Shown: positions 7,201 through 28,729 of the stretch, piece after piece
Layout: each line of letters starts with the position of its first letter
How positions within the stretch are numbered: position 1 is the stretch's first letter
NCBI GenBank assembly: GCA_964514965.1
Contig: CAZETV010000001.1
Location: 663,063 to 695,062, forward strand
DNA from: Candidatus Hadarchaeota archaeon
GTDB taxonomy: Archaea > Hadarchaeota > Hadarchaeia > Hadarchaeales > Hadarchaeaceae
Reading direction: 5' to 3'
DNA length: 32,000 nucleotides
The notes under the pieces: model-generated
The model's database searches: none
What the model saw: the letters and a program-made list of their open reading frames with translations, nothing else
What the model was told of the DNA's origin: nothing
Made by a program: the position numbers and the translations under genes

Positions 7201-8718
7201 GTGTTGACTAAAACCAAAGTTAACAAGTCGGTGGCTGAGATAAACGACCGAATCAGGCGCGGCGATGCGGTGATCGTGACAGCGGAGGAAATGGTAGAAA
7301 TCGTGAGAGAAAGAGGTGAAGTCGAAGCTGCTAAGGAAGTGGATGCGGTCACTACTGGCACCTTTGGGGCGATGTGCAGCTCGGGAACTTGGCTGAACTT
7401 TGGACACGCAGACCCGCCAATCAAAATGCAACGAGTATGGCTTAACGATGTCGAGGCGTATACAGGAGTTGCCGCTGTCGATGCATACATAGGTGCAACG
7501 CAGCTCAGCGAGACCCGCGGATTCGAGTATGGTGGAGGGCACGTTATCGAAGATCTGATCCGTGGAAAAGAGATGGAAGTCCGAGCGATCGCATACGGCA
7601 CCGATTGCTACCCGCGTAAGGAACTCGAGACCACCGTGACCAAGGACGACATTAATCAAGCTGTCCTCTGCAACCCCCGTAACGCCTACCAGCGCTACGT
7701 AGCAGCCACGAACTCGCGTGATGAAACTATCTACACCTACATGGGCACCCTGCTGCCGAACTACGGCAACGTAACATATTCGGGGTCCGGCAGCCTAAGC
7801 CCGCTCCACAACGACCCCAACTACGAAACAATCGGGATCGGGACGCGAATTTTCCTAGGGGGTGCTCAAGGCTACATATTCTGGGAGGGAACTCAACACG
7901 CCCCAACTAATGCAATGGGCACCATCATGACCGTCGGGAACTTGAAAGAAATGGACGCACGCTACATCAGGGGAGTAACGGTCGAAAAGTACGGGACTTC
8001 GCTCTACGTCGGCTTGGGGATTCCAATTCCAATTATAAACGAGAGAGTTGCAAAAACTACGGGCATAAGTGATGAGGAGATAAAAACAGACCTTACTGAC
8101 TACGGGGTTCCTCGAAGGAGCCGCCCTATTCTCAGGAAGGTTACCTATGCTGAATTGAAATCTGGGAAGATTGAAATCAACAACGATGAAGTACTCGTCA
8201 GCCCCTTGAGCAGCCTGAAGCGAGCGAGAGAAATCGCTGGCGTCTTAAAAAAGTGGATTGAAGAAAAAAGATTCTTCCTTTCTCAACCAGCGGAGAGACT
8301 GCCTATCGACCAAGTGTTCAAGCCAATGAAACAACTCGCAGGCGTCCCATTTGTCAGGGACGTTATGACACGAGAGGTAGTAACCGCCAAGCCGAGCGAC
8401 TCGATCGCCAGCGCGGCGAAGATACTTGCGAAGCGCAACTTCGACCATCTACCGATCGTAGATGCCAAAGGGAAACTCGTGGGAATAGCGACTTCGTGGG
8501 ACATCGCCGTGGCAGTCGGGACTGGTAAGAAGAAATTATCAGATGTTCTGACTTCCAAAGTTATCACGGCAACTGAGGACGAGCCAGTCGATGCTGTAGC
8601 GAGGAGACTTGAAAAACACAAAATCTCTGGGGTTCCTGTGATAAACGCCCGTGGCGAGCCCAGAGGAGTCCTGACGAGTCAGGATCTATCTAAGTTGTTG
8701 GGGGGACGAGGAAAATGA
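7201..8718 (+). CDS. homocysteine biosynthesis protein, COG1900 (DUF39) domain with tandem CBS domains (MJ0100/MA1821 family)
   Basis: VTAEEMVEIV, VTTGTFGAMCSSG, DPPIKM, NPRNAYQRY and YMGTLLP are colinear with MJ0100 as I recall it. The C-terminal ~130 aa form two CBS repeats. Confidence 0.85.
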   Translation: MLTKTKVNKSVAEINDRIRRGDAVIVTAEEMVEIVRERGEVEAAKEVDAVTTGTFGAMCSSGTWLNFGHADPPIKMQRVWLNDVEAYTGVAAVDAYIGATQLSETRGFEYGGGHVIEDLIRGKEMEVRAIAYGTDCYPRKELETTVTKDDINQAVLCNPRNAYQRYVAATNSRDETIYTYMGTLLPNYGNVTYSGSGSLSPLHNDPNYETIGIGTRIFLGGAQGYIFWEGTQHAPTNAMGTIMTVGNLKEMDARYIRGVTVEKYGTSLYVGLGIPIPIINERVAKTTGISDEEIKTDLTDYGVPRRSRPILRKVTYAELKSGKIEINNDEVLVSPLSSLKRAREIAGVLKKWIEEKRFFLSQPAERLPIDQVFKPMKQLAGVPFVRDVMTREVVTAKPSDSIASAAKILAKRNFDHLPIVDAKGKLVGIATSWDIAVAVGTGKKKLSDVLTSKVITATEDEPVDAVARRLEKHKISGVPVINARGEPRGVLTSQDLSKLLGGRGK

Positions 8719-9116
8719 CTCGAAAGATACTATTAAGGTACTCCACTCAGAAAGCCACAGAGCCCATTTTAACATCAGTAATCAAAGAAACTGAGACCCT
8801 GCCCAATATTCTGTACGCTGAAGTCGGCACAAAAGGTGGGGAGATACTGCTTTCAATCGATGCTTCTGACAAAGAGGTTGATAAAACAATCGCGCTGTTC
8901 AAGCAAAAAGGCATTGAGGTCCAGGAGATTAAACGCGCTATCCAACTCGACCATGATTCATGCTTCGACTGTGGGGCATGTCTCTCACTCTGTCCGACCA
9001 GCGCGCTGCACATGATTGACGACAAATCGGTCGAACTCGACGAGAACAAATGTATTTACTGCGAACTTTGCGTTCCATCATGTCCGGTGCGAGCACTCAA
9101 GCTATCAAAGTTCTAG
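8715..9116 (+). CDS. NIL domain - 2x[4Fe-4S] ferredoxin fusion (MA1822 family)
   Basis: The N-terminal ~75 aa are NIL-like. They are followed by CFDCGACLSLCP and CIYCELCVPSCP. The ATGA start/stop overlaps the upstream gene. Confidence 0.8.
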   Translation: MTRKILLRYSTQKATEPILTSVIKETETLPNILYAEVGTKGGEILLSIDASDKEVDKTIALFKQKGIEVQEIKRAIQLDHDSCFDCGACLSLCPTSALHMIDDKSVELDENKCIYCELCVPSCPVRALKLSKF

Positions 9117-9896
9117 GTGATTCAAATATACTCTCAAACTTGGTCCTTCAAGGAGACCAATCTCTACATAAAGTGCGACGATGAGCGGGCGATAGACTCT
9201 GCAATCGACGCCAGCTTACAGGCTCGAAACGATATCGAGCGATACATCCTCACAAATCCAGAGTTTCGATGGTCGCTTGAGCCCCTGAAGTTAGAAGGCG
9301 AACATCCAAAAGTCATCGAGCTTATGCTGAAAGCAGGTGAACTCGCAGGGATAGGGCCCTTTGCAGCTGTTGCCGGAGCCATCTCACAAATCGCAGCTGA
9401 AGCAGCACGAAGTGCAGGCGCCGAAAACGTGCTGGTGGAAAATGGAGGAGATATGACCATAATCGGCGCTAGAGATTTTCATATAGGGATTTTCGCGGAC
9501 GACACACAGAACTCCGGAAAAATAGGCTTCCTTGTTCGGGCTGTGGAGTTGCCAATAGGAATCTGCACGAGTTCGGGAACGATCGGTCATTCGCTGAGTT
9601 TTGGACAATCAGATGCTGTCGTAGCGGTTGCGCGCGAAACTTCGGTGGCGGACGCAGCAGCTACCTCAATAGCGAACTCGGTTAGGGGAGAGAACCTCAA
9701 ATCTTCAATCAAGCAGGGGCTGAGCCGGGCCAAACGCATCCGAGAAATTAGGGGGTGTCTGATCATGAGGAGAGAACACATTGGAACTTGGGGCAAGCTC
9801 CCTGAGCTAATTCAGGTATCGCCAGAATCCCATGAACTTTCAAACACCCAGAAAAAATATCAAAATTACAAGCCAGAACAAGCATTGATTTTATAG
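9117..9896 (+). CDS. UPF0280 / ApbE-like protein (COG2122, MA1715-like)
   Basis: GICTSSGTIGHSLSFGQSDAVVAVA is the signature I associate with UPF0280. The GTG start directly follows the upstream TAG. Confidence 0.65.
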   Translation: MIQIYSQTWSFKETNLYIKCDDERAIDSAIDASLQARNDIERYILTNPEFRWSLEPLKLEGEHPKVIELMLKAGELAGIGPFAAVAGAISQIAAEAARSAGAENVLVENGGDMTIIGARDFHIGIFADDTQNSGKIGFLVRAVELPIGICTSSGTIGHSLSFGQSDAVVAVARETSVADAAATSIANSVRGENLKSSIKQGLSRAKRIREIRGCLIMRREHIGTWGKLPELIQVSPESHELSNTQKKYQNYKPEQALIL

Positions 9897-9921: not shown

Positions 9922-10212
9922 ATGACAATCACCGTAAAATTCTTCGCGGAATTTCGTGAAGCTACCGGGAAAAGACAGGAAAACATTGAAGGAGTAAGCG
10001 ACGCTGCTTCCCTTCTTGAAGAACTCGTCCGCAGGTTTGGGGAGAAGTTAGCTAAACTACTTTACTCTCCCGACAGACAAAAGCTCCGCAAAACTGTGAA
10101 CATTTTGGTAAATGGTAGAAGGATAAGTGCCTCCCAAGGACTTAAAACGCCTCTAAAGGATGGGGATGTGGTGGCAATCTTCCCTCCTGTGTCTGGTGGA
10201 AAGGTAAGATGA
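9922..10212 (+). CDS. MoaD/ThiS-family ubiquitin-like sulfur carrier with a C-terminal KVR extension after Gly-Gly
   Basis: 96 aa. The N-terminus is ITVKFFAEFRE and the end reads DGDVVAIFPPVSGG-KVR-stop. Confidence 0.75.
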   Translation: MTITVKFFAEFREATGKRQENIEGVSDAASLLEELVRRFGEKLAKLLYSPDRQKLRKTVNILVNGRRISASQGLKTPLKDGDVVAIFPPVSGGKVR

Positions 10213-10311
10213 AGACCAAAATTTACACCTCCTTGCCTCTACTGCAAGATTGCAAAGGAGTTTTTGAATCAATGTGGTGTTGAGTTCAAGGAATTAAACT
10301 TTCAGGAAAGT
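10209..10311 (+). pseudogene. glutaredoxin/NrdH-like gene remnant (frameshifted and 3'-truncated)
   Basis: ATG 10209 overlaps the MoaD stop (ATGA). Frame 0 gives MKTKIYTS. From 10234 the next frame gives CLYCKIAKEFLNQCGVEFKELNF, a classic Grx N-terminal half. No Grx-like C-terminal half follows, and the region is overlapped by the convergent gene. Confidence 0.5.
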
Positions 10312-10675
10312 AACGCTTTAACAGCCCTCGCAACGCTCCCGCATGACGCTCCTCGTCCTTGGCGGTCGTGTAGAAGTATGCCTTTTCTGGCTCGACGTGG
10401 TGGCTCGCTTCTTCGAGCCTGACCTTAGCAGCATTCTGCTCGCCAGCAAGCATCTTCTCCAAGTTTTCCTTAGTCGCACCAACTCCATTCGCCAGCAGCA
10501 CGACTTCTGACGCATGTTCCGCCTCTTCCCACGCAATCCTTTGCAGCACTGAAGCTATCTCGGGGTAACCTTCGCGCTCCGCCTGCTTAGCCATTGCTAG
10601 GTAGAGGCCGACCTCCGATGTCTCGCCTCGCGTCCAGCTCTTGAGGTACTCCTCCAATTTCGTCATTTTTCTCAC
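10286..10675 (-). CDS. ferritin-like diiron protein of the rubrerythrin family (no rubredoxin domain)
   Basis: It has two E...ExxH pairs (EREGY...EEAEHA and GEQN...DEERHA). A GGAGGTGA SD lies upstream. Confidence 0.7.
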   Translation of the reverse strand: MRKMTKLEEYLKSWTRGETSEVGLYLAMAKQAEREGYPEIASVLQRIAWEEAEHASEVVLLANGVGATKENLEKMLAGEQNAAKVRLEEASHHVEPEKAYFYTTAKDEERHAGALRGLLKRYFPESLIP

Positions 10676-10907
10676 CTCCTACAGAAGTGGTTCATAACCC
10701 TCACAATGACGGTTATAGCAACTTTCGCAGATGTGGACTATTTCTCCCTCGTTGGCCCTCATTAGATTCTCACCGTCCCACATATCTCACTTTTCATTGC
10801 CCACCCTGCACACATCCAATCTTATAGATGGTCACGTAACGTTCGTCACCGCCGCTATTAACTTGCAACCCCCAACTGCTTTCCGAGCATCTTTTCGAGT
10901 TCGAGCC

Positions 10908-11096
10908 TTAGGTCGTCGAAGTAATCGAAGGCCACAAGTCATAAAATGGGCCGCTTAGTTCGATAACGACAGAAGGGTCTTCCAGCTTGACGAGCTTAGC
11001 AACAGCCTCGACTCCGCACCATTTATTAAATTCAGTTAAAGCTCGAACCACAAACTCTTTGTAGCCACGAGTGTCAAAAGTCGATATCATTACCAT
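10908..11096 (-). CDS. hypothetical protein, possibly the 5' part of a disrupted gene
   Basis: 62-aa ORF starting 4 nt after the PadR-TRASH stop. Protein-like reading continues in other frames down to 10679 (see findings). Confidence 0.3.
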   Translation of the reverse strand: MVMISTFDTRGYKEFVVRALTEFNKWCGVEAVAKLVKLEDPSVVIELSGPFYDLWPSITSTT

Positions 11097-11100
11097 TTAC

Positions 11101-14094: not shown

Positions 14095-14110
14095 GAGGAG
14101 GTGAGAGCAA

Positions 14111-14290
14111 ATGGCAAAGGACCCGGTTTGCGGAATGAAAGTGGACGAAGCTAAGGCTGAACACAAGGCGGAGTACAAAGGCAAAACGTATTACTTCTGC
14201 GCTCCTGTGTGCAAGACTGACTTCGAAGCAAACCCGGAGAAGTATACGAAGGGAACGGAAGCACATCATCACGGTGGTGGGCGCTGCTAG
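14111..14290 (+). CDS. YHS-domain (TRASH-like) small metal-binding protein
   Basis: 59 aa, below the ORF-track cut-off: MAKDPVCGMKVDEAKAEHKAEYKGKTYYFCAPVCKTDFEANPEKYTKGTEAHHHGGGRC. A GGAGGTGAG SD sits right after the copA stop. Confidence 0.8.
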   Translation: MAKDPVCGMKVDEAKAEHKAEYKGKTYYFCAPVCKTDFEANPEKYTKGTEAHHHGGGRC

Positions 14291-14310
14291 AAAAACTAGA
14301 AGAATATTCG

Positions 14311-14481
14311 ATGGTGAAAAATCCAGTCTGCGTCATGGACGTAGATGAGCGAAAAGCGGAGTTCAGGTAGAACTATCGTGGAAAGGTATACCCCTTCTGC
14401 TCGGTCGTGTGTATACGATGGTTCAGGAAGCGTCCGCAGAAGTACCTGAAGGGACAATCTAAAAAAGTGGACTACTTATGA
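14311..14481 (+). pseudogene. second YHS-domain gene interrupted by an in-frame TAG
   Basis: MVKNPVCVMDVDERKAEFR-TAG(14368-14370)-NYRGKVYPFCSVVCIRWFRKRPQKYLKG... is colinear with the neighbouring YHS protein. Confidence 0.6.
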
Positions 14482-14798
14482 AGAAGAACTAAACAATGCT
14501 CTGCTGTTTGGGACTTTTTGCAGATCTTTTCATCTGGCAATATCTGGGCGACCCATGGATAGTAATAGCCCCAGCCGTTGGATTCATCGTGAATTAGTTG
14601 AAGATGTGAAATTGTTCCAGAAAAAGCGTCCAGTCAAGAAGGGGGCTTGCCATGTCTGAGGTTTCCACTCGTGCTCGTGTTATTGTTCATAGCGGTATGG
14701 GCCCCCTGTTGCACAAGCGATGCCATATTCTCCCACCTATTCGCGAGAAGACCAAAACACATTAGAAGGACTTCCTAATACCCGCCGAAAGCCTTTTA

Positions 14799-14813
14799 TA
14801 TAACACTGTTATA
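14799..14813. promoter_or_regulatory. perfect TATAACactGTTATA palindrome overlapping the TTTTATATAA box upstream of the Met/Cys mini-ORF
   Basis: Read directly. Confidence 0.45.
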
Positions 14814-14827
14814 GAAAAACCGAAAGA

Positions 14828-14878
14828 ATGGTGATGATGATGAGGGATTTAGTTTGCCCGTGCTGTGTTTGCTGCTGA
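14828..14878 (+). CDS. 16-codon Met/Cys-rich mini-ORF (MVMMMRDLVCPCCVCC), candidate leader peptide or metal-binding micropeptide
   Basis: Hand translation. A TATA-like box is centred ~29 nt upstream and there is no SD, which fits leaderless geometry. It lies upstream of the sulfate-reduction operon. Confidence 0.35.
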   Translation: MVMMMRDLVCPCCVCC

Positions 14879-14973
14879 CTTAGTCACTACGCGGTTTTCA
14901 GCTGACCGTGTAAATTTGGTAATTTCAATCAATCACTTTTTATCTGTTATAGAACTAGTGAGGGGTCTGTCCG

Positions 14974-15750
14974 ATGCCCATTGAGACACTAGTCGCGATC
15001 GTGCTGGTCGGGGCCTTGGGCGGATATCTCGGCGGAATCGTGGGGGCGGGCATAGGAGCGACCGTAGTCCCTGGCCTAATTTTGCTCGGCATTGACCCCA
15101 TCATCGCGATTGGCTCAAGCTTGCTGCTACATGTGCTGATAGCTCCTCTTGGTGGGATCGCTCACTACAAATTTGGACACGTACGGCGAAGAATCTTAGT
15201 TCCATTGGTTCTAGCTGGGGTTCTGGGGGCCTTCTTCGGTGCCAACGCTTCCACACACCTACCTGCAGATGTGTTGAAGCTGCTCGTAGGCATCTCAGCC
15301 ATTGCTGCAGGCCTGCTAATCACAGTTAGATACCCTAGAACCAACCAGCGAAAGTTAACACTCCCCTCTGTCAAAAAAAGACTTCGGGTAGTCAGTACAC
15401 CCACGATAACAGCAATCGCCCTTATCGTGGGACTTTTATATGGGGCGTCGGGTGCAATGTGGGGCTCGATCGGTGTCCCTCTTTTAATTATAGTTGGAGT
15501 CACCCCTCACGTTGCGGTTGGTTCATCTCTGCTGGCACGATCCATCGTCGCCTTGGCCGGATCCTCAACCTACTACTTCCTGAACGGCATTCAAGCGGAC
15601 ATCATTCTATCGTTACTCGCTGGGGGGTCAATTGCTATTTTGCTCGGCGCACTCACCACAAAACGCCTTCCGTCCAGAAAGTTAAAACTAATCGTGGGCG
15701 TAGCTGTTATCGTGCTCGGCGCATCCGTCTTGGTGAAACAGATGATTTAA
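14974..15750 (+). CDS. TauE/SafE (DUF81) family anion permease, putative sulfate/sulfite transporter
   Basis: 258 aa and polytopic, with Gly-rich helices arranged in two similar halves, as is typical of DUF81. A GTGAGGGG SD lies upstream. Confidence 0.8.
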   Translation: MPIETLVAIVLVGALGGYLGGIVGAGIGATVVPGLILLGIDPIIAIGSSLLLHVLIAPLGGIAHYKFGHVRRRILVPLVLAGVLGAFFGANASTHLPADVLKLLVGISAIAAGLLITVRYPRTNQRKLTLPSVKKRLRVVSTPTITAIALIVGLLYGASGAMWGSIGVPLLIIVGVTPHVAVGSSLLARSIVALAGSSTYYFLNGIQADIILSLLAGGSIAILLGALTTKRLPSRKLKLIVGVAVIVLGASVLVKQMI

Positions 15751-17487
15751 ATGACACGACCAAAACGAAATACCGTAGAACAAAAACAAATCGATACAGA
15801 TATCTTGATAATCGGTGGTGGCACAGCTGGATGCATGGCTGCCGTCGAGGCGAAGTGGCTAGACCCGAAACTCAAAGTTGTCATCATGGAGAAGGCCCAC
15901 ATCGACCGAAGCGGCTGTTTAGCTGGGGGAATGAACGCCATCAACGTTTACCTCCACCCCGGGGAAACTCCCGAAAGCTTTACCCGCTATGTGCGATGGC
16001 AAGCGATGGGACTCTGTCGTGAGGACCTCACCATCAGCATGATCAAGGAGGTCAACTCAGCGGTCAAGCGCGTCGAGGAGTGGGGGCTTCCCATCCTAAA
16101 AGATGAAAATGGGAACTACTCACGGCGGGGTCGATGGAACGTCAGGATTAACGGGGAAGCTCTCAAACTGATCCTCGCCGAAGCTGTAAAGAAGTCGAAG
16201 GTTACCACACTTAACCATACTGTCGCAACCAATTTCATTCTCGATGAGAACCGCGTGGCTGGGGCATTCGGCTTTAGCATTCGTGACAAAAAATTTTACG
16301 TCGTTAAAGCAAATGCCACCATCGTCGCCACTGGCGGCGCCTCCGGTATCTACCGCCCGAACAACCGAAGCGATGCCCACCACACAATGTGGTACTGCCC
16401 CTTCAACACGGGAGCTGGATATGCGATGGGTATCCGCGGGGGAGCCGAAATGACTAGTTTTGAAATGCGGTTCATAGCACTTCGCGTGAAAAACATTATC
16501 GCCCCCACGGGCACGCTCGCCTTAGGCTTCGGCGCGCCACAAGTCAATGCGAGGAGTGAACAATATATGAAAACGCGCTATGCTCACCTTGGCGGCGAGG
16601 GCGCCCCGACACCAATCCGAGTTTACGCTCCGACCCAGGAGGCAAAGGAAGGGAGGGGACCGTGCTACCTAGACACTCGTCACCTCAGCCAGGAGCGAGT
16701 CAGAGAACTCAAAGCCAGCTATCTCGACATGTACCCTCAGATGACCCTCTATCTCGCGGCGAACCGCATCGATCCGAGCAAGCAACCAATCGAGATTGCC
16801 GGCACCGAACCCTATGTGGTGGGTGGGCACTGCCAAGCTGGTTACTGGGTGGACGAAAACAGAAAGACCACTCTCAAGGGTCTCTTTGCGGCTGGCGATA
16901 TCGTTGGAGGAGTGCCCTACAAGTTCGTTTCGGGTTGCTGGGCGGAGGGCATTATCGCCACCCGCGCAGCTGTAGAATTTACTAGAGCGAACAAGCACGG
17001 AAAAATCGGCACCACACAAGTCAAACGTGAAATGGAGCGGGTCTACGCCCCTCTCAGAGATAAAAAAGCCAGTGGGGGCGTGCGACCGAGGGAGTTGGAA
17101 GAGGAACTACAAAAGGTGATGGACGAGTACGCTGGAGGTATAAGCACATTTTACGAGATGGATAAGAAGCGCCTTCTAGTCGCACACAGGATGCTCCAAA
17201 AACTAAAGAAACAAACCAAAAACTTGATTGCCAAGAACTTACATGAGCTTATGCTTGCCCACGATGTAATCGACCGAATCGAAGTGGCGCAGGTGTTGGT
17301 GAAACACTTAATCTTTAGAATGGAAACTCGATGGCCAGGGTACCAAACGAGGCTCGACCACCCGAAGCTCGACGATGAGAACTGGCTATGCTTCGCCAAC
17401 AGCCGACGCGACCCGAAGACCGGGGAGATTAAGGTGTTCAAAGTTCCTTACAAACAAATCGTATCAGGAGATCGATATAAACCGTGA
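15751..17487 (+). CDS. aprA: adenylylsulfate (APS/PAPS) reductase alpha-subunit-like flavoprotein
   Basis: DILIIGGGTAGCMAAVEA is the FAD fold. EKA.I.RSG, FYVVKA.ATIVATGGA and AAGDIVGG are colinear with Archaeoglobus AprA as I recall it. The neighbours are a 2x[4Fe-4S] subunit and sat. Confidence 0.8.
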   Translation: MTRPKRNTVEQKQIDTDILIIGGGTAGCMAAVEAKWLDPKLKVVIMEKAHIDRSGCLAGGMNAINVYLHPGETPESFTRYVRWQAMGLCREDLTISMIKEVNSAVKRVEEWGLPILKDENGNYSRRGRWNVRINGEALKLILAEAVKKSKVTTLNHTVATNFILDENRVAGAFGFSIRDKKFYVVKANATIVATGGASGIYRPNNRSDAHHTMWYCPFNTGAGYAMGIRGGAEMTSFEMRFIALRVKNIIAPTGTLALGFGAPQVNARSEQYMKTRYAHLGGEGAPTPIRVYAPTQEAKEGRGPCYLDTRHLSQERVRELKASYLDMYPQMTLYLAANRIDPSKQPIEIAGTEPYVVGGHCQAGYWVDENRKTTLKGLFAAGDIVGGVPYKFVSGCWAEGIIATRAAVEFTRANKHGKIGTTQVKREMERVYAPLRDKKASGGVRPRELEEELQKVMDEYAGGISTFYEMDKKRLLVAHRMLQKLKKQTKNLIAKNLHELMLAHDVIDRIEVAQVLVKHLIFRMETRWPGYQTRLDHPKLDDENWLCFANSRRDPKTGEIKVFKVPYKQIVSGDRYKP

Positions 17488-17496
17488 GGTGTTTGA

Positions 17497-17814
17497 ATGG
17501 CTGTCTTGATCGACGAGAAAAAGTGCACGGGTTGCGGGATCTGCGTGGAGCTTTGCCCAGGCGACTTGCTGGCTCTAGAACCGAAGTCGAAAAAAGCTTT
17601 CATCTGGGACAACTCTGACTGCTGGAATTGCTTGGTCTGTGTCAAACACTGCCCCGTGGACGCCATCACTCTCAAGCTCCCAAAATCGATTGCCCCCTAC
17701 GACGCCACACTCACACCAGAAATGAGGAAAGATAAAACCGTGTGGACCTTGACCGATGCCAGCGGCGAAATGGAAAAGTTTGAGATAAAAAGGAAATCTG
17801 CAGGAGGTGCTTGA
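17497..17814 (+). CDS. aprB: APS reductase beta-subunit-like 2x[4Fe-4S] ferredoxin (short form)
   Basis: It carries CTGCGICVELCP and CWNCLVCVKHCP. It is 105 aa and sits directly between the aprA-like gene and sat. Confidence 0.7.
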   Translation: MAVLIDEKKCTGCGICVELCPGDLLALEPKSKKAFIWDNSDCWNCLVCVKHCPVDAITLKLPKSIAPYDATLTPEMRKDKTVWTLTDASGEMEKFEIKRKSAGGA

Positions 17815-18963
17815 ATGGAGCTTGTCAATAGGGTTTTGACCAGCCAGAAAAGGATGAAGGTGTTGGAGGAGCTGAAAGAATACCCGTCCGTGATAGCGAG
17901 CGCCGAAATGATCATGGACGCCGAACTCATCGCCACGGGTGGCTATACTCCAATCGAAGGGTTCCTTACAAATGAGGATTTCGAAAGTGTCCTTGAGCAC
18001 ATGCACCTAGTCAACGGCTCACCTTGGACCATTCCCATTGTTCTACCCGTCGATGAAAAAATAGCGGGCGGGCTCAAGGAAGGAGATGATGTAGTTCTAC
18101 TGGATAGTGCAAAAAATTCAATCGCCGTGCTTCACTTGAAGGAAAAATTCAAGTACGACAAAAAGCGCATGGTTCAGAAAATCTTCCGTACCGCCGATGA
18201 AAAACATCCTGGAGTTGCAGCGATTTACGGCTGGGGAGATTTCCTATTAGGTGGAGAAATTGATCTAGTCAACCGCCCAAAACATGTCTTCGAGCGATAC
18301 AACTTAGACCCTGCACAGACGAGGAAAGAGTTCAAGGAGAGGGGGTGGCGCACCGTTGTCGGATTCCAGACCCGCAACCCCATCCACCGCTCACACGAGT
18401 ACCTCCAGAAGTGTGCCCTTGAAGTCGTAGACGGGTTGTTCATCCATCCAATTGTTGGTTGGACGCGAAAGGGAGATGTGCCAGCTGAGGTGCGAATTGA
18501 AAGCTACGAGATAGTTTTGAACAACTACTATCCGCGCAACCGATTCCTGCTGGCGACGCTCTCGACTGCGATGAGGTACGCCGGGCCTAGGGAAGCGATT
18601 TTCCACGCGCTCGTACGGAAGAACTTCGGCTGCACTCACTTTATCGTCGGTCGCGACCACGCCGGGGTTGGGGATTATTACGACCCCTATGACGCTCAGC
18701 GAATCTTTTATGAATTCAAGGAAGGAGAACTCGGTATAACTCCAATGTTCTTTGAAAATGCATTTTTCTGCGTGTTGTGCGACGCGATGGCAACCAAGAA
18801 AACTTGTCCGCATCTGAAGAGCACACGAATAGCTCTCAGTGGCACGAAAGTGAGAGAACTCTTGCTTGAAGATAAACGAATCTCAGAAAAGGTAGTCCGC
18901 CCCGAAGTAGCAGAACTTTTGGCAGAGCATTATGCTATCGAGAAATCCAAAGGGGCGAGATAG
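17815..18963 (+). CDS. sat: sulfate adenylyltransferase (ATP sulfurylase)
   Basis: GFQTRNPIHRSHEYL and HFIVGRDHAGVG are the signature motifs. Confidence 0.92.
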   Translation: MELVNRVLTSQKRMKVLEELKEYPSVIASAEMIMDAELIATGGYTPIEGFLTNEDFESVLEHMHLVNGSPWTIPIVLPVDEKIAGGLKEGDDVVLLDSAKNSIAVLHLKEKFKYDKKRMVQKIFRTADEKHPGVAAIYGWGDFLLGGEIDLVNRPKHVFERYNLDPAQTRKEFKERGWRTVVGFQTRNPIHRSHEYLQKCALEVVDGLFIHPIVGWTRKGDVPAEVRIESYEIVLNNYYPRNRFLLATLSTAMRYAGPREAIFHALVRKNFGCTHFIVGRDHAGVGDYYDPYDAQRIFYEFKEGELGITPMFFENAFFCVLCDAMATKKTCPHLKSTRIALSGTKVRELLLEDKRISEKVVRPEVAELLAEHYAIEKSKGAR

Positions 18964-18964
18964 G

Positions 18965-19405
18965 ATGTACCTCCCGCTCCACATTAACCTGCGCGGGAAG
19001 AAAGTTTTGATCATCGGGTTGGGTAAGGTCGGGAAAAGGCGTGCTGAGAAATTGTTAAAAGCCGGCGCAAGCGTTACAGCCATTGATCGAAGGAAGGTGC
19101 GAGTCAAAAAAGGCGTGAGATTTATTCAAAAAAGTTTGCGGCGGAATGATATCCCATCCCTCAAAAAATATTTTCTTGTCGTGGCTTCCACCGATGATAA
19201 AAAATTGAACGCTGCTATCGCAAGAAACGCTAAACGAGAAGGTTGCTTAATTAACCGTGCTGACCTCTTTAAAAATGGGAATATACTCTTTCCAGCCGTT
19301 GTCAAAACGGGTGCGGGCATCATATCTTTCGCGACAATCGGAAGGAACCCGCGGCTGTCAAAGCAAATCAAGAAGGCGCTCAAACATGAGCTTCCCAAGA
19401 GCTAG
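18965..19405 (+). CDS. sirC: precorrin-2 dehydrogenase (SirC / CysG N-terminal type), short form
   Basis: LPLHINLRGKKVLIIGLGKVGKRRAEKLLKAGASVTAI is the NAD fold of siroheme synthase N-domains. ATG 18965 lies 1 nt after the sat stop. Confidence 0.7.
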   Translation: MYLPLHINLRGKKVLIIGLGKVGKRRAEKLLKAGASVTAIDRRKVRVKKGVRFIQKSLRRNDIPSLKKYFLVVASTDDKKLNAAIARNAKREGCLINRADLFKNGNILFPAVVKTGAGIISFATIGRNPRLSKQIKKALKHELPKS

Positions 19406-20381
19406 ACTGAGAAGATTAAGAAAAAGCGAAAAGATACGCGAGTTGGTAAGCGGGATTTCTCTCAACAAGCATGATTTTGTGTACCCAGTTTTCGTGAAGG
19501 AAGGATTGACTAGCAGAAGCGAGATACGCAGTATGCCCGGACAGTATCATCACTCACTGCGCGAATTGGGCAAATTCGCCGAGGAATGCGAAACCAATGG
19601 GGTGCTGGGAATGCTTATCTTCGGGACCCCAAGAAAAAAAGACATCTGCGGGAGCGGGGCGTACAATGTAAACGGGATTGCGCAAAGAGCCATCAAACGC
19701 GTGAAGGAAAAATCTGAACTCGTTGTCTTCACGGATGTTTGCCTCTGCCAGTACACGACGCACGGTCATTGCGGAGTGCTTACGAAACAGGGAATTGATA
19801 ACGATCGCACGCTCAGGCTCCTAGCCAAAACTGCTGTATCCCATGCTCGCGCTGGAGCAGATTTCGTCGCCCCTTCGAGCATGATGGATGGGCAAGTGAA
19901 GACAATTCGTGATGCCTTAGATGCAAGCGGGTTCAAGGATGTGGGGATAATGAGTTATTCCACCAAGTTCGCCAGCTCCTTTTATGGGCCATTTCGAGAA
20001 GTGGTTGAGAGCAACCCGAAGCGCGTGCAGGGTTTGCCCTACCTCGCTGACCGAAGCACTTATCAAATGGACTTCCGGTCGCTTGAGCAAGCGATGCGCG
20101 AAATTTCGCTCGACGTGGAAGAGGGCGCAGATATCACCATGATAAAACCCGCTTTGCCCTACCTCGATGTGATCTGTGAAGCTAAGCGAAGGTTCGACCT
20201 ACCGTTGGCCGCTTATCAGGTAAGTGGAGAGTATGCGATGATAAAGCTGGCGTGCTTGCGCGGACTGCTTGACGAAAGACGAGCCTTCCTCGAAACTCTG
20301 ACCTCGATCAAGCGAGCCGGCGCAAATTTTATCATAACTTATGCTGCACTTGACGCTGCTCGGTGGTTAAGTGAGAGTTAG
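19386..20381 (+). CDS. hemB: porphobilinogen synthase (ALA dehydratase), Zn-type
   Basis: The N-terminus is MSFPRARLRRLR. DVCLCQYTTHGHCG is the Cys-rich Zn site. ATG 19386 overlaps the sirC end. Confidence 0.9.
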   Translation: MSFPRARLRRLRKSEKIRELVSGISLNKHDFVYPVFVKEGLTSRSEIRSMPGQYHHSLRELGKFAEECETNGVLGMLIFGTPRKKDICGSGAYNVNGIAQRAIKRVKEKSELVVFTDVCLCQYTTHGHCGVLTKQGIDNDRTLRLLAKTAVSHARAGADFVAPSSMMDGQVKTIRDALDASGFKDVGIMSYSTKFASSFYGPFREVVESNPKRVQGLPYLADRSTYQMDFRSLEQAMREISLDVEEGADITMIKPALPYLDVICEAKRRFDLPLAAYQVSGEYAMIKLACLRGLLDERRAFLETLTSIKRAGANFIITYAALDAARWLSES

Positions 20382-21222
20382 GGTTGGCACGCGGGGTAGT
20401 AAGCTAGCAATTCTGCAGACCCGAAGAGTGATAGAAAAAATGAAAACTGTGATTCCCAACCTTAAGGAAGAAATTAAGATAATCAAAACCAGCAGAGATT
20501 TGCGGCGAATTAAGATCAATTCAGGAGTTTTCGTGAATGAGATAAATCGAGCGGTGCTTCGGGGAAAAATTGATATTGGTGTTCATAGCCTCAAAGACCT
20601 GCCAACAAGAGTACCCCAAGGTCTTTCACTTGCCTGTGTGCCCGAGCGGCTTGCCCCAAACGATGCCCTCATCTCGCGCGGTGGTACCGGCCTTTACAGC
20701 CTGCCTAATGGAGCGGTGCTTGGAACTTCAAGCCCCCGGAGGAAAGCTGAAATCATCCACCTTCGTCCCGACCTGAAGTTCAAGGACATCCACGGTAACA
20801 TCGACACCCGCATCCGAAAAATGGAGGAGGGATCCTATGATGGAATAATCGTCGCCCTCGCCGCTCTCCAGAGATGCGGTCTTCAGAAACTGGTGACTCA
20901 GCGCTTTGAACTAGACGAAATAGTACCCACGGCTGGCCAAGGAGCACTTGGGGTCGTTTGCAAACGAGACAGAGATTTTCTCGATAAAATATCGCAAATC
21001 AACGATGATGTAGCTTGGCGTGAAACGATGTGCGAGCGCACCTTCATGGAGAAACTAAGATTCGATTGCAAAACGCCTGCTGGAGCTGTTGCAAGGTTAA
21101 TGGATGGTGAAATCGAGCTGATAGTCGTTATTCATAAAAACGGCAGGCAATTGCTGAAGCTAAGAGGGCAAGACCCTAAAAATCTCGGAATAAAAGCAGC
21201 GAAGATGGTATCGAAGAGGTGA
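20371..21222 (+). CDS. hemC: hydroxymethylbilane synthase (porphobilinogen deaminase)
   Basis: The N-terminus is RVGTRGSKLAILQT, with HSLKDLPT further in. The GTG start overlaps the hemB end. Confidence 0.9.
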   Translation: MRVRVGTRGSKLAILQTRRVIEKMKTVIPNLKEEIKIIKTSRDLRRIKINSGVFVNEINRAVLRGKIDIGVHSLKDLPTRVPQGLSLACVPERLAPNDALISRGGTGLYSLPNGAVLGTSSPRRKAEIIHLRPDLKFKDIHGNIDTRIRKMEEGSYDGIIVALAALQRCGLQKLVTQRFELDEIVPTAGQGALGVVCKRDRDFLDKISQINDDVAWRETMCERTFMEKLRFDCKTPAGAVARLMDGEIELIVVIHKNGRQLLKLRGQDPKNLGIKAAKMVSKR

Positions 21223-21241
21223 TATAATACATAACATCCGC

Positions 21242-22330
21242 TTGACCCATAAGGAAGTTGGTGTCGAAAAGATCCCTGAAGCGGGGCGTGCCATCAGAAA
21301 TTTTGTCGTCACTCAGTCCATCGGCGATTATGTTGTTATACAAACTTGCAACCGAGCAGAGTTGTACTATCTTGATAGCACTTCTCAATCGCCTGATGGT
21401 TTCGTGTTCGAAAGCGGAACCGAGGCATTTCGACACCTTTTACGAGTAGCATGTGGTTTGGAATCGTTTGTCATAGGAGAAACGGAAATCCTAAATCAAA
21501 TCAAAAAGGCTTTCGTGCTCGCCAGAAAAGAAAAGCATTGTTCAAGGAAACTTGCGAAGTATTTTATGAATGCAATTAAAGTCGGGAGAAAAGCCAGAAA
21601 ACTTACAAAAATAAGTGTTGGTAAAGTGAGCACAGTCTCACTCGCACTTGAGTATGTCCAAGACTTGCTCGGCGATTTAACAAGAAAAAAATTTTTGGTG
21701 GTTGGAGCAGGCGAAACAGGCACAAAAGTTGCAAGGGCCCTCAAAAACATGAACGTTAAAAAAATGTTAATATCAAATCGTAACTATTACAAGGCTTTAA
21801 GATTATCTCGAGAAATAGCTGGTTCGGCCTATCATCTCTCGCGATTGAAAGACCTACTCAGAAAAGTGGATGTGGTCTTCTGTGCAACGAGTGCACCCCA
21901 CCCAATACTTACTAAAAATAAAATTGAAGTGGCTAAACAAGAAATTATACTTGTAGACCTTTCAGTTCCACGAAATGTTGAAGAATCGATACGAGAGCTT
22001 GAAAATGTTAAACTAATTTCCTTTCGAGACCTTACCGAGAAATCTAACAGAAATATGAGTGAACGGAGAAAAGAAATTAGAAAAGTTGAGGAAATCATAG
22101 ACTCTGAGCTCGCTAATAGAGATAATTTACGTGAACTTTACATTCACGCCGAACGAATAAGGAAAAAAGAGGTGAAAAAAGCTTTGCGTTTATTGACTAC
22201 CAAAGATTCCGAAGAAGTTATCGAGGGGCTGAGCAAATCCCTCGTCAAAAAGTTGTATTACCCTTTGAGAAAACGTGCCACGAAAATTGAAATTACCACA
22301 AGAACTGCTGGAAAAACGCGAAAAAAGTGA
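21242..22330 (+). CDS. hemA: glutamyl-tRNA reductase
   Basis: IQTCNRAELYY contains the catalytic Cys motif. VVGAGETGTKVARAL is the NADPH fold. It has a TTG start and a short N-terminus, and it is AT-rich. Confidence 0.85.
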   Translation: MTHKEVGVEKIPEAGRAIRNFVVTQSIGDYVVIQTCNRAELYYLDSTSQSPDGFVFESGTEAFRHLLRVACGLESFVIGETEILNQIKKAFVLARKEKHCSRKLAKYFMNAIKVGRKARKLTKISVGKVSTVSLALEYVQDLLGDLTRKKFLVVGAGETGTKVARALKNMNVKKMLISNRNYYKALRLSREIAGSAYHLSRLKDLLRKVDVVFCATSAPHPILTKNKIEVAKQEIILVDLSVPRNVEESIRELENVKLISFRDLTEKSNRNMSERRKEIRKVEEIIDSELANRDNLRELYIHAERIRKKEVKKALRLLTTKDSEEVIEGLSKSLVKKLYYPLRKRATKIEITTRTAGKTRKK

Positions 22331-23748
22331 AAAATATGGAAAAGAAAAAATTTGGTAAAGTGTATCTAGTTGGCTGTGGTCCAAGTAGTCCGGACCTTCT
22401 AACTCTTCGCGCCATTAAAATTCTGAAGAAAGCCGACGTAGTCTTTTATGACCGCCTCATAGACTCGACTGTTTTAAAATATGCTAGGAGAGCGAGGAAG
22501 GTGTATAGTGGAAAACACGGTGGTGAAGCGTGGAAACAGATTTATTTAAATAAACGCCTTTATCGAGAGGCTAAAAAGGGGAAAGTTGTTGTACGTCTTA
22601 AAAACGGCGACCCTTTTATTTTCGGTCGAGGGGGTGAGGAACTCCAGTATCTCCAGGGACGTGGCATCGAGGTAGAAGTCGTTCCCGGGCTTTCCTCAGC
22701 TCTCGTGTTGCCGGGAATTGCAAAAATTCCGTTAACCAAGCGAGATGTGTCTTCAAGCCTGACCATCGTGAGCGGTCGTGGGGCGGGCGGTAGGAAACCA
22801 CGCTGGAGCGGATTAGGCAACACGGTAGTCGTATTGATGCCCCTTGAGAATTTGGGCTGGATAATCCGTAGGCTTCTCTCAGGAGGCAAAAATAGGATGA
22901 AACCTTGCGCGCTGATAAGCAGTGGGACGATGACAGAAGAACGAATATTTGTATCAACTCTAGACAAAATTGCTGACGCTGCGGAGCGCCTTAGGTTCAA
23001 ACCGCCAGCAGTTTTTGTTGCTGGAGAGGTCGTTGGCGCCCTGCTCGACTTCAGAGGGCGACGTGTAGCAGCTTTCAGAGCGAGCAACGAGATAAAGCGG
23101 ACCGAGAGACTGATTAAACGCACCGGTGGCGCCCCTAACGTCTTCGAGATATGTGATATCAATCCGGCCGATGGTACTCTAAAGCGGGCTAGTAAGCAGA
23201 AATGGGAGGCGCTTGTCTTCATGAGCACCAATGGGGTTCGATCGGGAGCAAAGTTCTTTGACTTAAAAACATGCGTAACCATCGCAGTCGGTAATAGGAC
23301 GAAACGGGAACTCGAGCGCTTCGGTTGCAAGTCCATTATTGTTCCAAGAAAACAGAATGTGAAAAGTGTGGAAAAACTCTTGAAAGAGCAAAAGTGGCGT
23401 ACGGTTCTAGCCCTCAGATCTCCGTTGGCTAAGGGCAAGCTTGCGAGCGCCGTCAATATCCCTGCTTACCATATCAAGTTCAAAAACCTTACCCGAACCG
23501 TAAACAGTTATATCAAAACAAAGGATGATTTCACCCTCCTGACGAGTGCTGGACTGCTCGAGCACTTACTGAAAGCGGCGGACAAACTCGGGCTCAGGCA
23601 GGACTTCGTGCGAAAAATGAATCGAACCTTTGTCATTTCGCTAGGCGAAAACATAACCAAATGCGCGTTGGGGAATGGCATCAAGGTAAACCACGAGCCC
23701 GAACATCCGACCCTTGATTCGCTCTTCAGAAGAGGTGGAATTAGATGA
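22327..23748 (+). CDS. cobA: uroporphyrinogen-III C-methyltransferase fused to uroporphyrinogen-III synthase (CobA-HemD)
   Basis: VYLVGCGPSSPDLLTLRAIKILKKADVVFYDRL is the SUMT N-terminus. A ~230-aa C-terminal extension has HemD-like length and position. The GTG start overlaps the hemA stop. Confidence 0.8.
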   Translation: MKNMEKKKFGKVYLVGCGPSSPDLLTLRAIKILKKADVVFYDRLIDSTVLKYARRARKVYSGKHGGEAWKQIYLNKRLYREAKKGKVVVRLKNGDPFIFGRGGEELQYLQGRGIEVEVVPGLSSALVLPGIAKIPLTKRDVSSSLTIVSGRGAGGRKPRWSGLGNTVVVLMPLENLGWIIRRLLSGGKNRMKPCALISSGTMTEERIFVSTLDKIADAAERLRFKPPAVFVAGEVVGALLDFRGRRVAAFRASNEIKRTERLIKRTGGAPNVFEICDINPADGTLKRASKQKWEALVFMSTNGVRSGAKFFDLKTCVTIAVGNRTKRELERFGCKSIIVPRKQNVKSVEKLLKEQKWRTVLALRSPLAKGKLASAVNIPAYHIKFKNLTRTVNSYIKTKDDFTLLTSAGLLEHLLKAADKLGLRQDFVRKMNRTFVISLGENITKCALGNGIKVNHEPEHPTLDSLFRRGGIR

Positions 23749-25001
23749 GGTCTCGCTCGCGTCGGCTTTACGAGAGGGCGAAGCGTTTGCTGCCGGGAGG
23801 TGTTGACAGCCCTGTGCGTACATTCGAGCCTCATCCATTCTTCATCGAGCGGGGCGAGGGTTCAAAAATTCGTGATGTCGATGGCAACGAGTATGTGGAT
23901 TATTGCTTAGCCTATGGCCCCCTGATTCTTGGGCATCAACCACCAAGTGTGATGAAGGCAGTCAAGAAGCAAATTCAGAGAGGGATCCTCTTCGGCATCC
24001 CGAGCGAGCTTGAACTTGAGCTAGCAGAAAAAATTACTAAACACGTTCCATGCGCGGATATGGTGCGATTCGTAAACTCTGGAACCGAGGCGACGACGAG
24101 CGTCGTGAGGCTAGCGCGGGCCTACACCAACCGGGAAAATATACTCATCTTCGACGGCTGCTATCACGGGGCTAACGACCACTTTCTATTTGGAAAAAAG
24201 GGGCCGAAGAGCCCAGGTATCCCACACATGCTCAGGCGGAACACCCTTGTGGCCTCGTTTAACGACCTCACGAGTGTTGAAAAAATCGCGAGAAAAAACG
24301 AGCTCGCGGCAATTATTGTTGAACCGGTGATGGGTAACCTAGGGTGCATCCAACCAGCGGAGGGTTTCCTGAAGGGGCTACGGGAGATTTGCGATGAGCA
24401 CGGGGCGCTGTTGATATTCGACGAGGTGATTACCGGCTTCAGGCTGGCTCTCGGTGGTGCCCAAGAGTTTTTCAACGTTGTACCTGAACTCGCTACCTTA
24501 GGAAAAATCATTGGAGGAGGCTTCCCAATCGGTGCATTTGTTGGTAATGCTGAAATTATGGAGCTGGTAGCACCTGCTGGCAAGGTTTACCATGCTGGAA
24601 CTTTCTGCGGACACCCGGTCGCCATGGCTGCCGGGTTAGCCACCATTAAAACGCTAGAGAGGAAGAAAGCGATCGAGCGAGCGTGTAACTTTGCCCGCAA
24701 GTTGGCAGATACCTTAAGGCGCGAGCTCGAGCTACCCGTGAATCAAGTTGCGTCGATGTTTCAAGTGTTCTTCACTGAAGGAAATGTCAGCTCAGCCGAT
24801 GACGCTAGGAAGTGCGATAAAGAGGCGTTTATGCGATTTCACTGCGCTTTGCTAAAAAATGGTGTCTTCGCCACGCCCTCGCAGTTCGAGTGCTGGTTTA
24901 CCTCTGCCGCGCATACGAAAGATGATTTCGAAATTACGAAAAAAGCGATAACCATTGCTTCTAACGAAATTTTTAAAACAATGAACTCAAAATGTGGGTG
25001 A
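23745..25001 (+). CDS. hemL: glutamate-1-semialdehyde 2,1-aminomutase
   Basis: It carries LLPGGVDSPVR, NSGTEAT and FDEVITGFR. The ATGA start overlaps the upstream gene. Confidence 0.92.
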   Translation: MRSRSRRLYERAKRLLPGGVDSPVRTFEPHPFFIERGEGSKIRDVDGNEYVDYCLAYGPLILGHQPPSVMKAVKKQIQRGILFGIPSELELELAEKITKHVPCADMVRFVNSGTEATTSVVRLARAYTNRENILIFDGCYHGANDHFLFGKKGPKSPGIPHMLRRNTLVASFNDLTSVEKIARKNELAAIIVEPVMGNLGCIQPAEGFLKGLREICDEHGALLIFDEVITGFRLALGGAQEFFNVVPELATLGKIIGGGFPIGAFVGNAEIMELVAPAGKVYHAGTFCGHPVAMAAGLATIKTLERKKAIERACNFARKLADTLRRELELPVNQVASMFQVFFTEGNVSSADDARKCDKEAFMRFHCALLKNGVFATPSQFECWFTSAAHTKDDFEITKKAITIASNEIFKTMNSKCG

Positions 25002-25006
25002 TTTGA

Positions 25007-26506: not shown

Positions 26507-26515
26507 GGTGATGGA

Positions 26516-26776
26516 GTGGCTGAAAAAGTTGGTTTAAAACCTGCCGGGAAGGGGCACTACACGATGGACGCTCGAGGATATACTTGCCCCTACCCTGAGC
26601 TCTTCGCGCGGAGAGCCTTAGAAAAACTTGCGTCAGGTGATGTGTTTGAATTCATTATCGACAACATGCCCTCCTGCGAGACGGTTCCAGCCGCTGCCAA
26701 GGAGCTAGGACACAAGGTATTAGAAGTCATGAAAATCGATGACACCAGTTGGAAAATCATCATCAAAAAAAGTTGA
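26516..26776 (+). CDS. tusA: TusA/SirA-family sulfurtransferase
   Basis: MDARGYTCPYPELFARRALEKL contains the CPxP active-site motif. Confidence 0.8.
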   Translation: MAEKVGLKPAGKGHYTMDARGYTCPYPELFARRALEKLASGDVFEFIIDNMPSCETVPAAAKELGHKVLEVMKIDDTSWKIIIKKS

Positions 26777-26783
26777 GTTTTAG

Positions 26784-27143
26784 GGAAACTTCTGTGGCCA
26801 CCCGATCACCATGACCGCCGAACTGGCTACCATCGACACCTTCGAGAGAGCTAATGTTATCAAGCAAACAACTTAGCAAGGCAACGAAAATTCTTAAGCG
26901 CGAGCTCAAACTCTCCGTGAACCAATTGCATCAATGTTTCAGGTATTCCTCACCGAGAGAGAAGCCGGGTCGGCCGATGATGGCAAAAGCGTTCATGCCC
27001 TCCACCGCGCCTTGTTAAAGAGCGGAGTCTTCATCGCGCCCTCGCAGCTCGAGTGCTGGTTTACCTCTGCTGAACACGATAACAATGACCTCAAAATCAT
27101 CCTGCTAGCCATAACAAATGCGGCTGGAGAAATTTCAAAATGA
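26784..27143 (+). pseudogene. remnant of a second hemL 3' end (frameshifted, with stops)
   Basis: GNFCGHPITMTAELATI..., then KQLSKATKILKRELKLSVNQ, then MFQVFLTE...GVFIAPSQLECWFTSAEH in three different frames. These are colinear with residues GTFCGHPVAM...SQFECWFTSAAH of the intact hemL (24597-25001). Confidence 0.8.
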
Positions 27144-27247
27144 TAAAACGGTCCCCCAGCTCAGCCAGACCACGCGAAAAATAACCACCCAAAAATAGCT
27201 AGATAGATTCATGAAGTTAATTTTCCCATTTTTCCTGACGATTTAGA

Positions 27248-27268
27248 GGCGTTCTACGCCGTTTTTTT
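27248..27268 (+). terminator. GC hairpin (GGCGT-tct-ACGCC) followed by a T7 tract
   Basis: Read directly. It is the first strong oligo-T signal after the long plus-strand operon. It also abuts the 3' end of the convergent MFS pseudogene. Confidence 0.35.
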
Positions 27269-27269
27269 C

Positions 27270-28430: not shown

Positions 28431-28476
28431 AAACTCTCACTCGACCAAATGAAATTTCGATGCTACAAATTTAGGT

Positions 28477-28725: not shown

Positions 28726-28729
28726 GTCC

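Follow-up and report, generated by a model that had tools for sequence, protein, structure and literature searches.

A probable rearrangement scar behind the Gly-Gly of a MoaD/SAMP1-type sulfur carrier encoded beside a COG1900 operon in a Hadarchaeota archaeon

The HcyS/HcyD system of homocysteine synthesis in Wolinella, as Krishnamoorthy and Begley are said to have reported in 2011, combines a sulfur carrier that bears a short peptide behind its Gly-Gly with a JAMM protease. Tail trimming also has precedents in QbsD/QbsE (thioquinolobactin) and CxnF/CxnE (chuangxinmycin) (PMC5925218), and HvJAMM1 splits a linear SAMP1-MoaE fusion into active subunits (PMC4443979). Linear MoaD-MoeB and MoaD-MoaE fusions, and their need for cleavage, have already been described (PMC11237513, PMC1779556). 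Since masked carriers cut by JAMM proteases and archaeal MoaD-MoeB fusions are known (PMC1779556, PMC11237513, PMC4443979), a masked Gly-Gly is in itself not new. For homocysteine, the co-occurrence of COG1900 with SepCysS has been published (PMC5764234, PMC5424206), and a thiocarboxylate-dependent route through MetM/MetO exists in Streptomyces according to the preprint that cites it (Hasebe et al. 2024, cited in bioRxiv 10.1101/2024.10.14.618325).

The window analysed here (the whole stretch of DNA, 32,000 nucleotides) belongs to a Hadarchaeota genome of 1.28 Mb in three contigs (94.5% complete) and contains a carrier gene directly behind a COG1900 operon (Table 1). The carrier is of the same family as SAMP1 and archaeal MoaD (H. 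volcanii SAMP1 with UbaA, MoaE and HvJAMM1; P. furiosus MoaD, 1VJK; T. acidophilum Ta0895, 2G1E), and shares with these systems the FPPVSGG end, a single E1, a MoaE partner and a JAMM able to cut fusions after GG (PMC4443979). Whereas SAMP1 and MoaD are translated with a free Gly-Gly, this carrier has three residues behind it, and its E1 is made as a carrier-E1 fusion. Like QbsE and CxnE, it has a ThiS/MoaD fold, a short post-GG peptide and a canonical JAMM in the genome (PMC5925218). The extension and protease of QbsE, HcyS and CxnE are, however, conserved within one cluster, while here the tail is unique and apparently born at a breakpoint, and the JAMM lies beside another substrate. Unlike HcyS and MetO, the carrier is not encoded beside a thiocarboxylate-consuming PLP sulfhydrylase of the MetY/MetM type. 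Its orthologues in relatives are GG-K/R/A-E1 fusions that resemble the MoaD-MoeB and MoaD-MoaE fusions of Thaumarchaeota and others (including the D. radiodurans MoaD-MoaE cut by DR0402), from which the present carrier differs in being, as we read it, what remained after loss of the E1 part of the unit. The upstream trio are clear members of the COG1900 (DUF39)/NIL-ferredoxin/COG2122 pathway of Methanosarcina acetivorans and Desulfovibrio vulgaris; the pathway as described has no ubiquitin-like carrier or E1, but here and in several other Hadarchaeota genera a carrier or carrier-E1 unit lies inside the operon.

From comparison of these sequences, the carrier is most likely a JAMM-matured MoaD/SAMP1 carrier. 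We put the probability of the whole account, that of a scar-tailed carrier which would be trimmed by JAMM, activated by the E1 of a fusion protein and used by MoaE, at about 60%. What is new in it is a clear natural case of how such a tail originates, as the scar from loss of a fused E1 domain; such tails can last, since a protease retained for a different fused substrate renders them harmless.

Table 1. Features of the window, of the rest of the genome and of related genomes (window positions unless a contig, locus or genome label is given)
Feature	Location	Strand	Remarks
COG1900/DUF39 (HcyBio) enzyme with two CBS domains, first gene of the operon	7201..8718	+	Pfam HcyBio 4.3e-149, CBS 1.7e-29
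NIL-domain/2x[4Fe-4S] ferredoxin	8715..9116	+	Pfam NIL, Fer4; overlaps COG1900 stop
COG2122/UPF0280 (ApbE-like)	9117..9896	+	NCBIfam PRK04334 2.2e-72; database homologues named UPF0280
MoaD/SAMP1-type ubiquitin-like sulfur carrier	9922..10212	+	96 aa, ends GG-KVR
Tail codons AAG GTA AGA (K-V-R)	10201..10209	+	at or just past the probable rearrangement breakpoint
Replacement segment, about 0.9 kb	10201..11100		from synteny with G008 and WJOW01000002
Glutaredoxin-like remnant, frameshifted and truncated (MKTKIYT / PCLYCKIAKEFLNQCGVEFKELN)	10209..10311	+	ATG overlaps carrier TGA
Rubrerythrin/ferritin-like gene in replacement segment	10286..10675	-	Pfam Rubrerythrin 8e-14
SepCysS, sole copy in the genome	30144..31358	-	tblastn
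MoaD-E1 fusion	C1:697517-698620		
JAMM/MPN+ protease, 142 residues	C1:698858-699283	opposite to TusA-like gene and fusion	intact motif HSHPNIHAYVSARD
SepCysS paralogues of relatives	L052/L053 (G008:C45) joined 18960-20644 = approx. G008:C45:28959-30643; L055 7824-9032; L066 2624-3871		
Orthologues, state (a), in-frame carrier-E1 fusion	G001, G002, G005, G010, G011, G013, G015, G016, G017, G024		
Orthologues, state (b), GG-TAG-E1	G004, G006, G007, G008, G009, G019, G020, public contig WJOW01000002		
GG-TAG-E1 loci	L016 approx. 1495-1510 (G008), L019, L020, L022, L028, L029, L030; L055 7070-7117		
MoaE-linked carriers	G005, G010, G011, G012, G013, G019, G026, L082		link absent in the present genome

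The carrier and the origin of its tail

The carrier matches the Pfam ThiS profile (PF02597; 4.2e-19, 69.3 bits against a cut-off of 22.5), the NCBIfam moaD_arch profile (TIGR01687; 92.7 bits, cut-off 49.5) and the SAMP1 profile (NF041918; 72.2 bits, cut-off 60), and its closest solved homologues are Ta0895, P. furiosus MoaD, the M. acetivorans SAMP1 homologue, CysO and Haloferax SAMP1. Its reading frame is intact and keeps all core motifs (DGDVVAIFPPVSGG). The translation ends in ...DGDVVAIFPPVSGGKVR, that is FPPVSGG-KVR; the Gly-Gly (residues 92-93, codons 10195-10200) is followed by the three tail codons and a TGA stop at 10210-12, and is therefore not terminal in the translated protein. Since the alignments to all profiles and to all solved homologues stop at residue 93, the second Gly, KVR lies past the C-terminus of the family. 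The masked Gly-Gly with three residues behind it, the starting point of the preliminary description, is thus confirmed by both the translation and the alignments.

The 3' ends of the orthologues were read in 40 Hadarchaeota relatives, and 139 database homologues were added. KVR was present in none of the 40 relatives and none of the 139 homologues, the tails that do occur being different. Three states of the 3' end were found. In the first, seen in at least nine genomes, the carrier is fused in frame to an E1 (GG-K/R/A-LTPxELxRYxRQ...). In the second, GG is followed by an in-frame TAG and then by 243-245 open E1 codons (GG, stop, LTPEEFGRYSRQM...), and in the third the carrier has a free GG before its stop or carrier and E1 are separate genes (G022). 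The present genome groups with the TAG type, with COG2122 identities of 82-88% and a carrier dS of 0.6-0.7 as against 1.2-1.45 for the fusions with a Lys linker.

Residues behind the GG are found in 54 of 120 homologues (RS, TS, DRRA, KV, K, A, G and longer), so that tails are tolerated in the lineage; carriers ending in GGTS adjoin MoaE in G005 and G012. About 17 homologue clusters end in GG-GVETRRNKNCPVCKGV (..RRNKNCPVCKGV), a tail of 14-16 residues that is the vestigial C-terminus (last 15 residues) of the fused E1. These carriers have evidently lost the E1 core through internal deletion, which would make them a parallel to the KVR case. One such locus reads TBP (opposite strand), carrier, MoaE, while at the same place in G015 and G017 MoaE comes after a carrier-E1 fusion. 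The vestigial-tail clade includes P0131, P0136, P0138, P0139, P0143, P0144, P0151-P0153, P0156, P0159, P0163, P0164, P0167, P0170 and P0238, and in at least one case (L082 7001-7330) the carrier is translationally abutted to MoaE.

Homology to G008 and to the public contig WJOW01000002 ends at 10199, within the second Gly codon (BLASTN), and homology to relatives picks up again at about 11121 in a PadR-TRASH gene, the synteny with G008 being collinear on either side. At this place the relatives hold about 4 kb with the E1 domain, a SepCysS paralogue, DsrE-like and FTR1-like genes and small zinc-ribbon ORFs. The 0.9 kb of the present genome contains the glutaredoxin-like remnant, the rubrerythrin-like gene and further broken reading frames. 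When the source of this segment was sought among the relatives, the rubrerythrin-like gene proved to have no orthologue in 24 same-family genomes; its one match (57% identity) came from another family, and the gene is, judging by this distribution, foreign to the family. By tblastn, neither the lost E1 nor the SepCysS paralogue has a second copy anywhere else in the assembly.

Since KVR is unique, homology ends just after the GG and a foreign 0.9 kb stands in for about 4 kb, KVR is most likely a deletion scar and no designed pro-peptide. The ancestral carrier would have ended in GG followed by TAG and an E1 (MoeB/ThiF) domain, between COG2122 and the SepCysS paralogue, and the replacement event would have taken out about 2 kb in addition to the E1 domain and the SepCysS paralogue. 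With a breakpoint a few bases past the Gly-Gly codons, the reading frame would now extend three codons into unrelated DNA, giving K-V-R, and then stop. In the alignment the post-GG AAGGTAA agrees with the TAGCTTA or AAGCTGA of relatives at five of seven positions, so that the Lys codon may be what is left of the TAG/AAG linker codon. The idea of KVR as a conserved feature has to be given up, as it is found in the present genome only and begins where homology to the relatives stops. The preliminary description had also set its reading against a local mutation at the end of orthologues that stop uniformly at GG; what we find comes near to a local accident, but the orthologues, with their fusions, TAG codons and tails, do not end uniformly at GG.

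Two other courses of the rearrangement were considered and rejected. A simple inversion that placed the E1 near SepCysS is contradicted by the finding of no E1 remnant past SepCysS and no second E1 in the genome, and a deletion running into the downstream thioredoxin-like gene of relatives (L055) by the lack of homology between this gene and the glutaredoxin remnant.

A chimeric join or an indel at 10199-10212 would also place a break exactly at the end of the conserved sequence, and the 1-nt frame change in the next, glutaredoxin-like, reading frame would fit an error of sequencing or assembly. The contig, however, is 1.03 Mb long, in an assembly of only three, the G008 synteny returns after 0.9 kb with order and orientation unchanged, as a true replacement predicts, and the missing E1 and SepCysS paralogue do not turn up elsewhere in the assembly. 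An artefact is thus a very improbable source of the tail.

Removal of the tail and the remaining E1

The only E1 of the genome is a ThiF-family domain (280 bits, C1:697840-698547) that forms the C-terminal part of a 367-residue MoaD-E1 fusion, the first 95 residues of which are MoaD/SAMP1-like and end in IPAVAGG. The gene order past the window is a ThrC homologue (the genome has two), the MoaD-E1 fusion and a TusA-like gene, with the JAMM/MPN+ protease next to them. This JAMM has the exact HxHx7Sx2D motif, and its best match is PfJAMM1 (5LDA). The E1/TusA/JAMM cluster lies 2.5-4 kb beyond the window end and 24 kb downstream of the carrier; the JAMM is thus not in the carrier's own cluster here but adjoins the MoaD-E1 fusion. 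The earlier remark that the window holds no protease or E1-like gene is therefore literally true, and the search of the genome that it had proposed returned one E1 with an intact JAMM nearby.

JAMM orthologues follow the fusions. Of 14 same-family genomes with an in-frame carrier-E1 fusion, 13 yielded an orthologue (the remaining one is 56% complete), as did one of eight genomes in which the E1 is only unfused or TAG-separated, but none of three without an E1; since the genomes are metagenome-assembled, interrelated and often incomplete, these counts describe a pattern and are neither a statistic nor a series of independent cases. Species with the Lys linker have the JAMM in the same cluster, about 2 kb away from the fusion, which it would cut between GG and K, with Lys as the P1' residue just as in the KVR carrier. 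From this co-occurrence, the shared P1' Lys and the described precedents, we infer that KVR, too, is removed by the JAMM that the genome has kept for its surviving MoaD-E1 fusion.

The carrier would thus still be in use. The JAMM/MPN+ protease, retained for releasing the MoaD domain of the sole E1 fusion, would clip KVR after Gly93, and the released E1 would adenylate and thiocarboxylate the trimmed carrier. Its main client would be MoaE, in molybdopterin or tungstopterin synthesis for aldehyde:ferredoxin oxidoreductase (AOR), and a supply of sulfur to the neighbouring COG1900/COG2122 enzymes would also be possible. Against this account, the JAMM is 24 kb off and its natural substrate only 29% identical to the carrier, the E1 that is left shares only 49% identity with the cognate domain that was lost, and the carrier has six unique substitutions, including an Ala-Ser pair.

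These substitutions, which are absent from 24 orthologues (the other species in the genus have 0-5), and of which the pair replaces two hydrophobic residues at alignment columns 72-73, bring in a further explanation. With its cognate E1 gone, the carrier might be a stranded relic, beyond activation and on its way to becoming a pseudogene, with the MoaD role filled instead by the carrier domain released from the E1 fusion, as it could be. The tail does block the C-terminus of the carrier, the flanking 0.9 kb is full of decayed genes, and six lineage-unique changes are slightly more than the sister species have. Yet besides the intact frame, the dN/dS of the carrier against its orthologues is 0.13-0.25, equal to that of the orthologues among themselves, a measure that has no power to reveal loss of function if the scar is recent. 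The branch shows no excess length, and the outgroups are no farther from the carrier than from those of sister species (25.2 differences as against 24-30). The fused domain that would have to replace the carrier is only 29% identical to it, whereas the MoaE-adjacent carriers of relatives are 60-63% identical, and related lineages retain MoaE-linked carriers with tails of 2 to 16 residues. We therefore hold a relic to be unlikely and prefer a carrier that would still be trimmed and used.

Other genes of these families are present in the genome. One of two further ThiS-family genes encodes 71 residues with a free GG and adjoins a TtuA/NcsA-like thiolase. The second, a MoaD/SAMP1-like paralogue at L011 7463-7747 (minus strand; C1:701462-701746), scores 70.8 bits against the SAMP1 profile and ends in FPPGASD without a Gly-Gly; its neighbours are an ArsR-type regulator and an ACR3-like permease, and its G003 orthologue (87% identity) ends in FPPAVESSAAE. 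From its end, this paralogue is predicted to be a carrier fold incapable of C-terminal activation. A second JAMM/MPN+ of 144 residues with an intact HSHPSTNASPSRED is encoded at L013 2836-3270 (minus strand; C1:145835-146269), where its neighbours have no link to sulfur.

The client of the carrier and the COG1900 operon

Since MoaE (C1:51438-51767), MoaC, two MoeA and an AOR are encoded in the genome, it needs a MoaD. The carriers that stand directly before MoaE or E1-MoaE in relatives are 60-65% identical to the carrier studied here and about 30-40% identical to the other MoaD-like sequences of the genome, which are themselves 29-37% identical to the carrier (29% for the domain of the fusion); no other close MoaD candidate was found in the present genome. 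The most economical reading of these comparisons is that the carrier is the MoaD/SAMP1 of the cell and stands within a sulfur gene cluster by coincidence. It had been compared with carriers of the homocysteine type; given its membership of the MoaD/SAMP1 family, the MoaE-adjacent position in other genera and the lack of another close MoaD in the genome, an ordinary molybdopterin-synthase carrier is more likely than a special homocysteine carrier.

The trio directly upstream had been named as COG1900 with CBS domains, NIL-ferredoxin and COG2122, and the profile matches in Table 1 agree. The COG1900-CBS protein is 95% identical to its G008 orthologue, and the carrier follows COG2122 on the same strand after a gap of 25 nt. 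Throughout the phylum the core of this operon is COG1900, NIL-ferredoxin, COG2122 and a SepCysS paralogue, a linkage that fits the published co-occurrence. The sole SepCysS of the present genome is 93% identical to the first SepCysS of G008 and 58% identical to G008's operon copy.

Most relatives have two SepCysS paralogues (about 58% identical to each other), of which the present genome keeps the non-operon copy only. One SepCysS of the relatives always lies directly in the COG1900-NIL-COG2122 operon and is followed in G008 by a DsrE-like gene. Relative to G008, an insert of about 15 kb is present at 14100-29100 of the window, between copA and the gene at 29130-30143, and is a sulfate-to-sulfide/siroheme operon. 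Together with the loss of the operon-linked E1, SepCysS paralogue and DsrE-like gene, this insert may point to an altered route to reduced sulfur.

A carrier-E1 unit lies between COG2122 and SepCysS in genera g1, g4, g8, g10 and g12. In g11 and g19 the E1 stands after SepCysS, and in g2 it lies 2 kb upstream. Overall, 8 of the 12 genera of the family have it within 3 kb of COG2122, the arrangements being of at least three kinds (behind COG2122, behind SepCysS and 2 kb upstream). The recurrent proximity of E1 and COG2122 suggests a functional or regulatory tie of the carrier-E1 unit to the COG1900 operon. Literature searches found no published link between COG1900 or SepCysS and MoaD or E1.

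The preliminary description went further and took the carrier for a dedicated, proteolysis-activated thiocarboxylate donor to COG1900/NIL-ferredoxin/COG2122, to which the SepCysS might perhaps be added, and thus for part of a hybrid sulfide/thiocarboxylate route. Besides the recurrent placement and the close spacing on one strand, the position of the JAMM in the same cluster in Lys-linker species would be in keeping with such a role, and the literature leaves the sulfur donor that COG1900 and SepCysS use in the cell unsettled (PMC5764234). However, the E1 is the sole E1 in most of these genomes and must also serve MoaD and tRNA thiolation, so that its position says little on a dedicated role. 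The carrier or carrier-E1 unit adjoins MoaE, away from COG2122, in g3, g5, g7 and part of g12; G003 and G018 have COG2122 followed directly by SepCysS; and G021 (95% complete, nine contigs) has the trio without E1, carrier, MoaE or JAMM. The present genome kept its trio despite losing the operon E1 and SepCysS paralogue, and in D. vulgaris the genetics needed just the three genes (PMC5764234). We therefore regard a dedicated donor as improbable. As to co-occurrence with COG1900 clusters, which had been proposed as a check for extended carriers, the picture is mixed: the unit adjoins COG2122 in five genera, elsewhere it is separate or MoaE-linked, and G021 has the trio without it. A dedicated link of the carrier to COG1900 homocysteine synthesis is weakly supported.

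Nor does the hybrid of the two homocysteine routes find support in the gene order, as the ThrC/MetM-like gene adjoins the fused carrier domain of the other carrier-E1 protein (L011 2250-4620) instead of the carrier studied here. The ThrC homologue, carrier-E1 fusion, TusA and JAMM that stand together just past the window resemble the MetM/MetO system, as far as this is outlined in the citing preprint. That module has its own fused carrier domain and does not adjoin the gene of the carrier studied here. The two routes to homocysteine have the look of distinct modules placed near each other, not of a hybrid. Of the earlier interpretation as a whole, the masked Gly-Gly, the E1 and JAMM in the genome and the carrier-E1 units in COG1900 operons have stood, but not the conserved tail or the dedicated hybrid route.

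A broader form of the proposal, in which the Hadarchaeota COG1900/COG2122 enzymes and the operon SepCysS would be fed by a ubiquitin-like thiocarboxylate from the operon E1, with the carrier made as a JAMM-dependent pre-form, is in our view doubtful. If it were true, the sulfur donor that these enzymes use in the cell, long sought, would be identified for at least one lineage. The repeated placement of an E1/carrier module in the COG1900-COG2122-SepCysS operon of one archaeal family makes the module a testable candidate donor, while the carrier itself would, on the reading we prefer, serve mainly MoaE.

The GG-TAG-E1 junction in the nearest relatives

The GG-TAG-E1 junction of the closest relatives is an expression puzzle of its own, and no description of this form was found in the literature searched. 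Behind GG-TAG, 12 conserved codons (LTPEEFGRYSRQ, dN/dS about 0.25) precede the first ATG of an intact E1 of 245 codons (dN/dS about 0.09). The TAG-separated E1 is usually the sole E1 of its genome. Genomes of the TAG type are without JAMM except for G008, where the JAMM lies beside a second fusion of the ThrC type. Decoding of the in-frame TAG as pyrrolysine was considered and rejected, as no PylS scored above the cut-off in five genomes and TAG also stops ordinary neighbouring genes. The RYxRQ motif is kept in the stand-alone E1s of the family, and a start at the internal Met would drop it. At the second codon after TAG, seven sequences read ACG and G019 reads ATG. Candidate ways of translating the E1 past the TAG would be leaky read-through at TAG-C, reinitiation at the ACG or a truncated start.
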